Part shown: positions 44,561 through 49,447 of the stretch, piece by piece
Layout: each line of letters starts with the position of its first letter
How positions within the stretch are numbered: the stretch's first letter is position 1
DNA from: Candidatus Poribacteria bacterium
GTDB lineage: Bacteria > Poribacteria > WGA-4E > WGA-3G
Assembly: GCA_963665235.2 (NCBI GenBank)
Contig: CAXXLX010000001.1
Span: 3,072,001-3,136,000 of the forward strand
DNA: 64,000 nt
Direction: 5' to 3'
Notes under the pieces: model-generated
Seen by the model: only the letters and a program-made list of their open reading frames with translations
The model's database searches: none
Told to the model about the DNA's origin: nothing
Translations under genes and position numbers: made by a program

Positions 44561-45844
44561 TCACGCTGCCTTTTCAATATTTGCGCGGGTCCCCTCGACA
44601 TCAAAACAGGCGTATTGATTGGTCCGCATAATTTGCGTAGCAAACGCCATTGCCTGCTTTTCTGTGAAATACCCGTCCTCGATTTCTGCCTCAAGGGCGC
44701 GGCGGATTTCGTTCCGCGCTTGTATAGAGTATGCCATCGCACTTGTCGGCCACCCGGTGTCCCCACCGAAGGCAAACAGCTTATTTGAGGGCACTGCATG
44801 GATGCATCGGCGTAAGAAATCGCGTGAACTGTATGGGTCGATGCTCCATGCCCAGCAGAAATCAACCCAGATGTTGCGGTAGTGCTTGGCAAGAGCGACC
44901 AGTTCATCGTTATACGGGTAGGCGATGTGCATGAGTACAAACTTCGCGTCAAGATATCGCGCGAATAAAGCACACATATTCCCCGCTGGGATGCGGCTGA
45001 CAGGCATTCGGTCGTTGCCTGCGTAGTAGCCGGTATGAATTTTGAACGGGAGATTGTGTTCAATAGTCAGTTCAACCCCGCGTGCCCAGCACCAATCGCC
45101 GAGGCAGAGGCGCGTGGATTCATCTGCGGATTTTGTGAGCACAGCATCTAGCGCAGTAGCAGCATCGGCATCGGTTCGTTCGCTCCAGTCGAGCGTTCGG
45201 TTATAGGCATGCTGCGATTTTACGGCGATAGCACACGGTGCATGCTTCGCGAAAATTGCCGACAATGCGTTTTTCAAGGAGGCGAGGTCTTTAACTTCAA
45301 CACCGGTTTCCGCATGAATAGCACTCGGGTCAATTTGCCCGTTGCAGAAGGTTGCCCACGACAGGTCATAGAGGAAAAAATCTAATCCTGATGGGTCAGG
45401 CGGACAGGGCCAGCTGAAATCATCGGTTTGGATATGGTCGAGATTTGCAAGGTCGTGTAAGATATGATAACGTTTGCCTGGGGTGCGAAGCGTCTGCACC
45501 TTACCTTGTGCCTCAGCGAGCGCGTCCCCAGTTAGTTCATCAAGACCGTAGATATGTTTCGCGATGAGGCGTACAGCTTCGCCGTATCCTGTAAATTGCG
45601 TTGCTTCCCACGCCTCGCGAATTCCTTCGAATCGGTCTTTGATATCACGGGATGCGTCCATCAAATTTTTCATCGACTCCGGCGTGGCCCCGGCGGTGTT
45701 AAGGTCGGCTGGGACATAGTTTCCGAATAAATCTTGAAGGATATCGGGTCCGTTTTCGACCCAATCATTTTCTCTCCGCATGTGTTCATGCGTATCAACT
45801 AAGCGGATAGATTGAATATGATGTGTTAAATCTGTAGTTTCCAT
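44561..45844 (-). CDS. Amidohydrolase-family protein
   Basis: LVDTHEH, KIHTG, VLMHIAYP, FGGD. Confidence 0.85.
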   Translation of the reverse strand: METTDLTHHIQSIRLVDTHEHMRRENDWVENGPDILQDLFGNYVPADLNTAGATPESMKNLMDASRDIKDRFEGIREAWEATQFTGYGEAVRLIAKHIYGLDELTGDALAEAQGKVQTLRTPGKRYHILHDLANLDHIQTDDFSWPCPPDPSGLDFFLYDLSWATFCNGQIDPSAIHAETGVEVKDLASLKNALSAIFAKHAPCAIAVKSQHAYNRTLDWSERTDADAATALDAVLTKSADESTRLCLGDWCWARGVELTIEHNLPFKIHTGYYAGNDRMPVSRIPAGNMCALFARYLDAKFVLMHIAYPYNDELVALAKHYRNIWVDFCWAWSIDPYSSRDFLRRCIHAVPSNKLFAFGGDTGWPTSAMAYSIQARNEIRRALEAEIEDGYFTEKQAMAFATQIMRTNQYACFDVEGTRANIEKAA

Positions 45845-45896
45845 GAAAATTCTCCTTCTTAAAAACGAAATCGGTCTGGTCTAGTAAATTTTGTAC

Positions 45897-46041
45897 TTGA
45901 CAAATATATCAAATCATGATGTAATATATAGTGTCTTGACGAGCTAGCTACCTTTTTCGCGAGATTGAGTGTGATATTTCGCAATGTGTTTGCAGCAAAA
46001 CATCTGCGTTCCATTATACAGAAAAAGTGTTTTTGTGTCAA
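45897..46041. promoter_or_regulatory. Face-to-face sigma70 promoters
   Basis: Plus strand TTGACA-17-TGTAAT (45897-45925). Minus strand perfect TTGACA-17-TATAAT (46041-46013). Confidence 0.65.
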
Positions 46042-46189
46042 GAGAAACCTCCAATTTTCCAATTTGGCCGCGAGGCATATTCTCGTTGCTTTTCTGGAAG
46101 TATGCATTCTCCGAATGCTGGAAGCAACAGGAAAGCAACGCGTGCGACAACTTACTGAAACGAACGGAGGAAAACCACAGGAGCAGATA

Positions 46190-47110
46190 ATGCCTACAGG
46201 ACGGATTAAGTACTACAATTCGGATAAAGGGTTCGGCTTCATTGCACAAGATAGCAATGAAGAGGATGTCTTTTTACACAATTCCGCGATTAAACACGCG
46301 GAATACGAGGAGCTTCGCGTCGGTCAACGCGTTAAGTATAACGTCGTTGAAGGCGAGAAGGGCCTCGTTGCTAAAAACGTCGAAGTGTTGCTGACCTCAA
46401 CGGAACGGAGATGGCTGCGCCAAGGGAAAACGATTATACCCCGCGGCTACTCCGGATTTCCAGCCCAAAATCAGGAACAGCTTTTCAATGAAAATGAACC
46501 GTTGGTTGATAAAACCGACCCAGAGAACAGGACACCCGCACTCAAAACCACGTCACCCCCCGGAGATAAGCCCCCGCAAACCGATTCCCCTACATCCCAG
46601 ACTGAACCGATAGTAGAAGGTAAAGAGCAAACCTCCAAACGGTTGAGCTTCGGTGACCTGTATATCCTCAAACAGATCAATTTTGAGACCCCGATGTTTT
46701 TTGCATTGTATAACCACGAGCAAGTGCCTGCTACGGTATTAGAGATGACGCTCTCTACTTTTACGCTTAATTGCAGCGGAAAGGAGCAGGTCATTGCGAA
46801 AACGGACATAAAATATTGCTATAAAGACATCGACGCAGAGAACTTACGCGCACTGCTACGTTACAATGAAGAGGTCAAGGCGCGACAACTCAAAGCGACA
46901 GCTGCTCCCGAAGATGTCTATACGCTCGATGCTGAAACGGCTCAACACGCCCGAAAAGATGGAAATTCAATCAGGGTCACCCTCAGGGAGGGCGAAATCT
47001 TCCAAGGCACAGTTGACTGGATTAGTCCTTACGAGATTAAGATGGTCCTGGAAAACGGTTCTAAGGTTGTCGTGTTTCGGCACGCCCTCCACAATTTTGG
47101 AGTAGTATAA
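46190..47110 (+). CDS. Cold-shock domain protein fused to two Hfq/Sm-like domains
   Basis: CSD RNP1 KGFGFI and RNP2 VFLH, a P/T/E-rich linker, and two Sm-like repeats ending QVIAKTDI and VVVFRHAL. AGGAG RBS before ATG 46190. Confidence 0.8.
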   Translation: MPTGRIKYYNSDKGFGFIAQDSNEEDVFLHNSAIKHAEYEELRVGQRVKYNVVEGEKGLVAKNVEVLLTSTERRWLRQGKTIIPRGYSGFPAQNQEQLFNENEPLVDKTDPENRTPALKTTSPPGDKPPQTDSPTSQTEPIVEGKEQTSKRLSFGDLYILKQINFETPMFFALYNHEQVPATVLEMTLSTFTLNCSGKEQVIAKTDIKYCYKDIDAENLRALLRYNEEVKARQLKATAAPEDVYTLDAETAQHARKDGNSIRVTLREGEIFQGTVDWISPYEIKMVLENGSKVVVFRHALHNFGVV

Positions 47111-47111
47111 A

Positions 47112-47705
47112 ATGGCAACACATTCAGAACAGGTAATGGCTGCTTACAACGGACTCGTCGCTGAAATAACAAGAGATGTGCGCCGGTTGCGTGAAGAATA
47201 CGGACGTTTGCCGTGTCCGACAGATTGCTTTAAGTGCTGTCGCAATACGGCGACAATGCCCATAAGTGAAGTCGAAGCGCGCGACCTAAAGCGCGGTTTA
47301 GACGCTCTTCCGCAGCAGATACGCCGTCATATTCGTAAAAAGGCGGACCGGACAATTGCTGTCCTACAAGCAGCTGGGCATTCACAAGAAAAGATGGTCC
47401 AGGATGCAGGTATGGAGGCTATCCAGCTTGTCAAAGGGAAACCGGTCGGCGAGTGTCCGATGCTTATCGGGGGTGTTTGCAGTGTCTATGAACATCGTCC
47501 GGTGATATGCCGCGTGTGGGGTTATCCCATCGATAACGGCAATGAACTCAGCTGTTGTCATAAAACTTTCATCGGGCAACGGCAAAAGTTTAAACCGATA
47601 GATTACAGCGGGTATTGGCGGCGGTGTAAGACACTTAGCGAAGCACTAGGCGCGACCCAAAAAACACCGAACTGTTATCTCGTTTCGCGGCTGATAGAGA
47701 CATAG
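47112..47705 (+). CDS. YkgJ-family cysteine-cluster protein
   Basis: CPTDCFKCC, CPML, CSVYEHRPVICR. Confidence 0.88.
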   Translation: MATHSEQVMAAYNGLVAEITRDVRRLREEYGRLPCPTDCFKCCRNTATMPISEVEARDLKRGLDALPQQIRRHIRKKADRTIAVLQAAGHSQEKMVQDAGMEAIQLVKGKPVGECPMLIGGVCSVYEHRPVICRVWGYPIDNGNELSCCHKTFIGQRQKFKPIDYSGYWRRCKTLSEALGATQKTPNCYLVSRLIET

Positions 47706-47750
47706 CTCCAACATGCTATGCAATGGATGCATGTGGCAACATCTGAACAG

Positions 47751-48065
47751 CTAAATATCTTCTGACGCGTTGAACTCGCGCAAAAAGGTGAAGGTATAAA
47801 TTCCGGTACGGTGCCCATCGCTCCAGAGAAGCCGAATCGCATAGCGGCCAACGCGCTGAATATCTACGATGTGCAGCTTCTCCCAAAACTCTTCAGTCGG
47901 TAACACCCGAAGCAGATCAGCGTTTTGTCGTTCCGCGTCGCACCGCGCGCACGGGCAGTTTTGCCGAAGAAGGCGGTAGGCGTGTTCACTCCGATGCCCA
48001 TCTTTCCATTGAATAGCGAGACTATTCGGCAAACGTTTGATTTCGGTAGGTTGTACATTCAGCAT
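47751..48065 (-). CDS. DUF971 / GBBH-like N-terminal domain protein
   Basis: WKDGH, LRQNCPCARC, VGRYAI, WSDGHRTGIY. Confidence 0.88.
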   Translation of the reverse strand: MLNVQPTEIKRLPNSLAIQWKDGHRSEHAYRLLRQNCPCARCDAERQNADLLRVLPTEEFWEKLHIVDIQRVGRYAIRLLWSDGHRTGIYTFTFLREFNASEDI

Positions 48066-48144
48066 TTGAAGTCAAACGGGGTGTCAATCTTCAGCATCCG
48101 CATCGGGTGTCTCCAATTAACACAAACCCGTTTGTCCTCGTTGG

Positions 48145-48408
48145 TTACAGGAAGTAATCCGCGTTGATTTGTGTGAAATGTTCCCATTCATCCGGGACAT
48201 CTTCCTCCATGAAGATAGCCTCAACGGGGCATTCCGGTTCACATACCCCACAATCAATACATTCCTCCGGATCGATAAAGAGTTGATTGACCTCTTCATA
48301 TTCATCGGCTGCATCCGTCGGATGTGGGTGAATGCAATCCACGGGGCATACATCAACACACGCGTTATCTTTAACATCAATACAAGGTTCACAAATTACA
48401 TACGTCAC
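48145..48408 (-). CDS. Dicluster ferredoxin (FdxA-like)
   Basis: CEPCIDVKDNACVDVCPVDCI and ECIDCGVCEPECPV. Confidence 0.93.
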   Translation of the reverse strand: MTYVICEPCIDVKDNACVDVCPVDCIHPHPTDAADEYEEVNQLFIDPEECIDCGVCEPECPVEAIFMEEDVPDEWEHFTQINADYFL

Positions 48409-48615
48409 TGAAAAAATCCTCCTTTTTGTTAAAATTCAGCTATAGGTTTTCCGCTTGCATTCCGTTATAATAATACCATGTAGAATCCGGTTTGTCAAGT
48501 ACTATTTTAAAATTTACCACAACCAATACTTGACAACAAAATGTTTGTATCAGATAGTAAAATCCGCAAATATGTGAGCAAGCTGTGAGAAGTTGTATCA
48601 TTGCTGGGTTTTCTC

Positions 48616-49020
48616 TCATGAAAACGCAGCAAGAAAGTCTGCGGCTGTTAGGATCTGGATGTTCTGATAGTTTCCAAGTACTAGGAGATGGCGGTCCCCA
48701 GTAACAATATGAGTTGCTGCCCCTGCAACAGCACACTCAATGATTTTATTGTCGTCCGGATCCGCATCAACAACGTTGAGCGTGTTCCTAATCGTAACCA
48801 GTCGCATGAAATCAAGGAAGAACGCAATCCTATCTCTCGTTTGGATTGATGAGAAATTGAGCTTGGCAGAAAGTTTTTTTGCCAATTCATCTAAAATTTC
48901 TGCACAAGTCACTGCTTCAACACTGCCTCGTCGTGCTAGCTCAAGACAGTGATAGGGGGTTCCTCGCCAACCGGTCCCGGAGAAAAGGATATTTGTATCA
49001 AAAACAACTATTGGGTACAT
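48616..49020 (-). CDS. PIN-domain toxin
   Basis: VVFDTNIL, ILDEL, DPDDNKIIECA, IVTGDRHLL. Confidence 0.9.
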   Translation of the reverse strand: MYPIVVFDTNILFSGTGWRGTPYHCLELARRGSVEAVTCAEILDELAKKLSAKLNFSSIQTRDRIAFFLDFMRLVTIRNTLNVVDADPDDNKIIECAVAGAATHIVTGDRHLLVLGNYQNIQILTAADFLAAFS

Positions 49021-49247
49021 TCGCGGTCTTCATGAATGAGGTCGTCAACAAAACGTTCACGCTCTTCCTCGTTCATCGCGTCCCAATCTAAACCTCGTGA
49101 GACACATAACTTCCGGAGCTGTGCTTCGGCATAGTCCATAAGTGCTGCTTGTTTAGGGTCTAATTTATTTGAATCGGCACGCGCGACTGCCTGCCCATTT
49201 TCAGGCAGGAGTTCTTGATTGCTTGTTGAGCCGACAGTTAAACTCAT
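49008..49247 (-). CDS. Small putative antitoxin
   Basis: About 80 aa, GGAGG RBS, overlaps the PIN gene start, acidic C-terminus RGLDWDAMNEEERERFVDDLIHED. Confidence 0.65.
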   Translation of the reverse strand: MSLTVGSTSNQELLPENGQAVARADSNKLDPKQAALMDYAEAQLRKLCVSRGLDWDAMNEEERERFVDDLIHEDRECTQ

Positions 49248-49447
49248 CTCATTTTCCTCCTTCGTGAACCCGGTATCTTGTGTGAGCAGGTTTCCAAGAG
49301 ACCAGAAGTGCACTCCTAATTATCTTACTGCAATTATACATTGTCGCGTTGTATTCGTCAATTGCTTTCAGCGACTTTTAAAATTTCTGTGATTTTGACG
49401 CAATTAAATTCCGTACCAGCGGTCAAATGACGTTGTAGAATTTTGTC

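Follow-up and report, generated by a model that had tools for sequence, protein, structure and literature searches.

A cold-shock domain fused to two Hfq-type Sm domains in a conserved protein of the candidate phylum Poribacteria

A 306 amino acid (aa) protein encoded on a 64,000 nt stretch of a Candidatus Poribacteria genome (assembly GCA_963665235.2, contig CAXXLX010000001.1, positions 3,072,001 to 3,136,000; this whole stretch is called the window below) joins an N-terminal cold-shock domain (CSD) to a tether and a doubled Hfq-type Sm domain, and we lean, with modest confidence, towards reading it as a three-part RNA-binding protein of the RNA-chaperone type. Hfq, which anneals RNA, and the cold-shock proteins, which melt it, are the two textbook bacterial RNA chaperones and are normally separate small proteins. 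The gene (46190..47110, plus strand) belongs to the core genes of the candidate phylum Poribacteria, which comprises uncultivated sponge symbionts; a whole phylum of such symbionts carries the CSD and Hfq fused, with the Hfq part doubled. The protein is a real, conserved variant of known RNA chaperones made of familiar parts; possibly it represents a new type of RNA chaperone in bacteria, whose assembly, ring mechanism and function we infer.

The original prediction, made from the sequence alone, had proposed a cold-shock domain, a disordered linker and two tandem Hfq/Sm-like domains, and had called this architecture unknown among described proteins. A full-text literature search is consistent with this statement, as it turned up neither a fusion of CSD and Hfq nor a tandem Hfq/Sm protein; some database entries of the family are already labelled PF00313+PF21979 automatically. 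A 2002 survey by Sun, Zhulin and Wartell (NAR 30:3662) reportedly mentions an Hfq with two repeats; PMC6200039 cites it solely on species that carry a second hfq gene. As the protein is small and looks soluble, E. coli mutants in hfq and csp could serve to test it, with no need to culture the host.

Domain architecture of the protein

The coordinates and peptides given in the original prediction are correct, and both Hfq-like segments are present in the 306 aa product. The first Hfq-type Sm domain, D1 (46634..46834, plus strand, residues 149-215), is predicted to have five strands after an N-terminal helix, and an invariant KYCYK motif closes it. It is followed by a helical connector (46835..46927, residues 216-246) and by the second Hfq-type Sm domain, D2 (46928..47110, residues 247-306), which contains the Sm2-like motif F296-R-H-A299 and is followed by the stop codon. 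Strong purifying conservation was seen in both Sm halves and in the CSD motifs.

D2 is, by its sequence relationships, an Hfq homologue. A family profile of the double-Sm module built from 53 sequences matched B. subtilis Hfq (3ahu) at E 1.3e-7, with another 37 sequences of Hfq or Hfq-like proteins at E <= 0.01, and 12 of the 57 scanned relatives exceeded the Pfam cut-off for Hfq or Hfq_1 (a CSD was found in 14 of the 57), hence the homology to Hfq holds though strict family membership of D2 itself fails. The Sm2 motif of Hfq reads [YF]-K-H-A-[IV] and is accompanied by an aromatic residue in the RNA-binding pocket. In D2, F296-R-H-A-L300 stands in place of Y-K-H-A, with a conservative K-to-R change, and Y281 is the aromatic residue at the pocket position; Y281, F296, R297, H298 and A299 are all invariant among 28 homologues.

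D1 had no direct hidden Markov model (HMM) match. When the profiles of the two domains were aligned with hhalign, D1 and D2 matched each other with 96.8 % probability and E 2.9e-10 over 55 columns, in register from the helix through strands 1-4. The controls stayed far lower (D1 vs CSD 0.5 %, D2 vs CSD 0.4 %, reversed D1 7.7 %, 20 column shuffles at most 4.9 %). Moreover, in the relative P0218 the segment equivalent to D1 reached 33.5 bits on PF17209, over the Pfam Hfq cut-off. These alignments indicate that D1 and D2 arose through internal duplication.

The predicted structure leads to the same picture. The AlphaFold2 model of residues 148-306 (53-row alignment), with a predicted local distance difference test (pLDDT) of 96.3 and a predicted template-modelling score (pTM) of 0.90, shows two units, each of a helix and five strands, with a pair of short connecting helices between them (model residues 66-75 and 80-84, pLDDT >90). 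We compared the model with 48,161 PDB representatives without a Foldseek pre-filter, and the seven best chains were all Hfq. D2 (model residues 100-159) superposed on Synechocystis Hfq (3hfo_A) with a Z of 8.6 and a root-mean-square deviation (rmsd) of 0.9 Å over 60 residues, and D1 (model residues 5-67) on Caulobacter Hfq (6gwk_A) with a Z of 7.9 and 1.1 Å over 63/63 residues; these Z values are middling and draw their weight from the agreement with the sequence evidence and from the coverage of whole domains. The predicted Sm fold of both C-terminal domains is supported by the comparison of the model as well as by the sequence profiles, and the modelled helix and five-stranded bent sheet resemble Hfq (PF17209; 3ahu and 3hsb of B. 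subtilis, 6gwk of Caulobacter, 1kq1 of S. aureus) and the cyanobacterial Hfq-related proteins (PF21979; 3hfo, 3hfn) at 0.9-1.1 Å over 60-63 residues. No solved chain among the PDB representatives covers both D1 and D2. Hfq itself has one Sm domain in about 70-110 aa and forms a homo-hexameric ring, whereas here two Sm domains, an N-terminal CSD and a long linker make up 306 aa, for which a ring would be conjectural.

At the N-terminus, the CSD (46190..46390, plus strand, residues 1-67) is canonical, as had been proposed. It matched PF00313 over residues 3-65 with E 2.3e-20 and 72.6 bits against a Pfam cut-off of 27, and E. coli CspA (1mjc) with E 1.9e-13 in a sequence search; the CSD model superposed on 1mjc with a template-modelling score of 0.87, normalised to the target, and an rmsd of 1.6 Å (Foldseek), and five strands forming an OB-type barrel are predicted. 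RNP1 (K-G-F-G-F-I) and RNP2 (V-F-x-H) are the nucleic-acid-binding motifs of cold-shock domains, and the corresponding segments KGFGFI (K13-GFGFI-18) and VFLH (V27-FLH-30) align with CspA and are invariant in 28 sequences. The domain is thus a full-length match to the CspA family (PF00313; 1mjc, 1csp), with about 40-47 % identity to solved cold-shock proteins. Those proteins stand alone with about 70 aa, whereas the Poribacteria CSD is the first fifth of a 306 aa protein and has an invariant peptide of its own directly behind it.

This post-CSD peptide (46388..46480, plus strand, residues 67-97) comprises about 30 residues and is invariant across Poribacteria. Its consensus in the alignment of 28 homologues is LLTxTERRWLRQGKxIIPRGYxGFxxQNQ, also written LLTPTERRWLRQGKTIIPRGYSGFPxQNQ, with a short predicted helix at residues 70-77. 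The peptide matched no family, and a similar one is present in the more distant CSD-bearing relatives P0122 and P0125; a docking, autoregulatory or autoinhibitory role is possible. The subsequent linker (46481..46633, residues 98-148) is rich in P, T, S, Q, E and K and is probably disordered, as the original prediction held: its length and sequence differ among the 28 homologues, and the AlphaFold pLDDT is <50 over residues 83-162.

Proposed assembly and alternative explanations

In the mechanism that we propose, the N-terminal CSD would bind and melt single-stranded RNA, and the flexible tether would lead from it to a rigid pair of Hfq-type Sm domains. Such double-Sm units could join edge to edge in the way Hfq subunits do, and the simplest assembly would be a trimer, in which six Sm domains form a ring with alternating D1 and D2 sites. 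The D2 sites would offer an Hfq-like uridine pocket (Y281, R297, H298), the D1 sites a surface of another kind, rich in lysine and tyrosine (K204, KYCYK). The CSDs on their tethers might capture or unfold RNA close to the ring, and the melting CSD and the annealing ring would then cooperate in a chaperone activity. This arrangement would resemble, by analogy only, that of the double-barrel capsid proteins, in which a domain is duplicated in one chain and three chains build a pseudo-hexamer; their fold and function are unrelated. A trimer of a duplicated domain mimicking a hexamer appears in PMC6441041.

We regard the trimeric six-Sm ring with three CSD arms, which the original prediction had suggested, as plausible. 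If the ring closes, it would amount to a naturally occurring hetero-site ring of the Hfq type and a test bed for the division of labour between the proximal, distal and rim surfaces, and also for the effect of an unwinding domain tethered to a ring that anneals. A complex prediction with three copies of residues 148-306 scored 0.01 against a mark of 0.42 and is neutral on the ring. In a bolder version, to which we give only tentative credence, the Poribacteria replaced stand-alone Hfq and Csp by this one protein, as a trimeric six-Sm ring of non-equivalent sites with three CSD arms, and the double-Sm unit also underlies a wider, so far unrecognised class of bacterial RNA regulators that includes FljA-type translational repressors and the fusions to HTH, HU and GmrSD domains.

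Several observations speak against an RNA chaperone of this kind, the conjectural nature of the assembly among them. D2 of the 306 aa protein stays under every curated Hfq cut-off: it scored 21.2-22.3 bits on PF21979 (Hfq_1) and 14.2-16.4 bits on PF17209 (Hfq), both with a cut-off of 27, and, in NCBIfam, 13 against 61.7 on TIGR02383 and 19.4 against 52 on NF047718 (cyanobacterial Hfq-related); a match to the archaeal Hfq-like protein MJ1435 (E 2e-3) was below the threshold. D1 has diverged further from Hfq, with A-K-T-D-I in place of the Sm2 motif and hence without its His, with a KYCYK of its own and, in Poribacteria, also without the pocket aromatic residue. The nearest structural match of D2 is a cyanobacterial Hfq, which we take to be a poor RNA binder that works through a protein partner. 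The module is fused to HTH_3, HU, DnaJ_C, HEAT or GmrSD domains in relatives and is thus not bound to a single function. Finally, the contigs from RNA libraries that cover D1-D2 are a hint of expression and no proof of transcription.

A possible alternative, which we hold to be the less probable course, is that no ring is formed and that the protein is a compact monomeric or dimeric RNA-binding platform, acting as a target-specific regulator of translation or stability like FljA, whose family may have the double-Sm build too, and not as a global chaperone. FljA, the Salmonella-type repressor of phase-1 flagellin, reportedly binds fliC mRNA. D1 and D2 were modelled as one rigid body (pTM 0.90), as such a platform would be, and the ESM Atlas look-alikes of residues 148-306 were headed by clusters of PF03614 (Flag1_repress; 0.91 and 0.90), followed by Hfq clusters. 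These top language-model look-alikes are 158-160 aa long, about the size of the double-Sm module, but Atlas scores are leads only, and PF03614 matched neither the 306 aa protein (E <= 1) nor anything in the genome from which the window derives (E <= 10). Among 53 relatives scanned with PF03614, 2 gave weak matches (best E 0.017). Two relatives matched the profile weakly with their D2, one at positions 19-60 and the other at 116-164 (E 0.07-0.09), and such two-site matches are expected if the PF03614 profile is itself a two-Sm repeat. If the likeness is real, FljA would be a double-Sm protein. The flagellin methylase FliB presumably shares the CxxCxxCC domain with the ykgJ-like gene next to the CSD-double-Sm gene, which may be a coincidence. 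Sm-like proteins that form no ring (WYL domains, Rof/YaeO) do occur in the list of structural matches, lower down (Z 5.3-6.2), but sequence homology points to the ring-forming Hfq.

It appears unlikely that the protein mainly binds DNA or is tied to transcription, for instance as an antiterminator of the CspE kind or as a nucleoid-associated protein, with Sm domains that serve oligomerisation only. The best NCBIfam rows for the CSD were indeed the antiterminators CspE and CspD, well under their cut-offs, a solved Hfq among the structural matches (5uk7) is bound to double-stranded DNA, and some relatives carry a C-terminal HTH_3 (P0124, P0126, P0128) or HU domain (P0258). The 306 aa protein, however, has no DNA-binding domain other than the CSD, and the residues of the Hfq pocket that correspond to the conserved ones of D2 contact RNA. 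We consider it very improbable that the protein serves as the sensor in a system of defence or conflict, because, although the distant relatives P0251 and P0268 combine two Hfq domains with GmrSD nuclease domains and the CSD gave weak matches to the retron Se72 effector and the TOTE S1/CSD domain, no nuclease or other effector is attached to the 306 aa protein and its gene was found in 120 of 121 genomes of the phylum, among stable housekeeping neighbours (ferredoxin, GBBH-like_N, amidohydrolase).

Distribution and relatives

We collected 268 close homologues of 300-320 aa, which belong to 'Candidatus Poribacteria' wherever the source names an organism. Of the 121 genomes sampled from the phylum, 120 gave a match, among them all 114 of high quality. 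Many of them contained 2-5 matches, the additional copies being shorter, CSD-less paralogues that are likewise from Poribacteria; a single match, the CSD form, was found in the window's own genome. These genomes are a sample, and what was missed in them is to be read as not found rather than absent.

The window's genome is 92.6 % complete, and in it the open reading frame (ORF) 46190-47110 is the sole CSD match and the best Hfq/Hfq_1 match (the only other row had E 0.8), while CsrA and ProQ were not found there. Hfq over the cut-off in frames <110 aa was restricted to two deep-branching genomes among 61 genomes of the phylum. Among 41 phylum genomes, CSD frames of the size of a Csp are present in families f2, f3 and f8, whereas the window's family (24 genomes) yielded none except one 80 aa frame at a contig end. 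Judging from these counts, CSD and Hfq domains seem to be carried mainly or solely by the fusion in the lineage of the window, and in its family the fusion appears to stand in for both the stand-alone Csp and the stand-alone Hfq.

An exhaustive phmmer search with residues 140-306 returned 163 cluster representatives at E <= 1e-3, most of which span both halves of the query. The varied fusion partners in distant relatives characterise the double-Sm module as a reusable nucleic-acid-binding unit. Some distant relatives contain multiple Sm domains (P0185, P0251, P0261, P0268); P0185 has four Sm repeats about 150 aa apart, and P0251, one of the two GmrSD fusions, also has a C-terminal CSD. The fusions of GmrSD with Hfq and CSD are hints of Sm/CSD sensors in defence systems.

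A CSD-less double-Sm paralogue with an Arg/Gln-rich, disordered N-terminal tail occurs in many Poribacteria (loci L033-L064; P0137, P0141). We had considered 'module-only' representatives from other phyla and rejected this, because the 32 related loci are from Poribacteria wherever a source is named, which makes these representatives Poribacteria paralogues. A profile search with a diverse family alignment again matched mostly Poribacteria proteins, a search with P0131 yielded 9 proteins, and tblastn searches with the module against phages and with the relative P0232 against plasmids gave chance-level matches only.

Gene context, upstream region and transcripts

The open frame extends from 45965 to 47110 on the plus strand, with translation starting at the ATG at 46190. 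This start agrees with the N-terminus MPTGRIKYYN, which is common to all 28 aligned homologues, and with a Shine-Dalgarno sequence AGGAG (46179..46183, plus strand) located 6 nt 5′ of the ATG; an additional GGAGGA lies upstream of it at 46166-46171. The surrounding sequence CAGGAGCAGATAATGCCT showed little or no variation across all 12 aligned sequences.

A gene for a YkgJ-like CxxCxxCC (UPF0153) protein of 197 aa (47112..47705, plus strand) begins 1 nt past the stop codon. The protein scored 22.6 bits on PF03692, just short of the cut-off of 23, and two of four orthologues exceeded that cut-off (25.2, 23.6, 21.9 and 21.3 bits). Its cysteines are arranged as C35-x3-C-x2-C-C43, followed later by C-x9-C-x10-C. 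The original prediction had regarded the two genes as coupled, and the 1-bp gap and the presence of ykgJ directly downstream in 11 of 12 close loci agree with this; among 12 distant loci, from other Poribacteria families, only 3 show this order, which makes the coupling lineage-restricted, a trait of only part of the phylum. As a sign of a shared function the linkage is at best weak.

In 7 of the 12 distant loci a convergent ferredoxin gene, sometimes duplicated, takes the place of ykgJ downstream, and of all neighbours of the CSD-double-Sm gene ferredoxin is the one conserved most widely. In the window, a GBBH-like_N (DUF971-type, 84.2 bits) gene and a small ferredoxin-like gene (47751-48065 and 48145-48408, minus strand) are convergent to the operon, and an amidohydrolase gene (44561-45844, minus strand) is divergent from it, separated by an intergenic region of 345 nt.

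This intergenic region contains a putative promoter-like -35 hexamer, TTGACA (45897..45902, plus strand), followed by an A/T-rich stretch resembling a -10 element. The hexamer lines up at one position of the alignment in 7 of the 12 upstream regions; the others differ, or the 356-nt cut was too short. It was absent from the output of a promoter-consensus scan, and as a promoter it would give a leader of about 260 nt. The best-conserved block of the leader (46010..46056) has invariant or near-invariant columns across 12 relatives and contains, on the minus strand at 46041..46013, a perfect sigma-70 consensus, TTGACA-17-TATAAT (score 12/12), that points away from the CSD-double-Sm gene, to the amidohydrolase gene. 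The block may act as a promoter, either divergent or antisense, or as an RNA element of the leader. A scan of 45000-48500 against Rfam returned nothing at E <= 1, thus no known cspA-type leader element was detected.

Metatranscriptome contigs from four runs of one study cover D1-D2 with 95-99 % identity, and two of them bridge the junction between the CSD-double-Sm gene and ykgJ. For some parts of the window no RNA-library contig was found, which is no sign of silence. Near the 3′ end of the gene, at about 47097, metatranscriptome contigs from a closely related strain contain 14 additional bases, and in close homologues (e.g., P0003) the C-terminus is 4-10 residues longer. In view of the additional bases, a strain-specific deletion seems to account for the shortened C-terminus in the window and for the gap of 1 nt before ykgJ.

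Farther downstream, a PIN_3 gene (66.2 bits; 48616-49020, minus strand) overlaps the end of a small 101 aa ORF upstream of it (49008-49313, minus strand) by 13 nt, and the two have the layout of a putative VapBC-type toxin-antitoxin pair.

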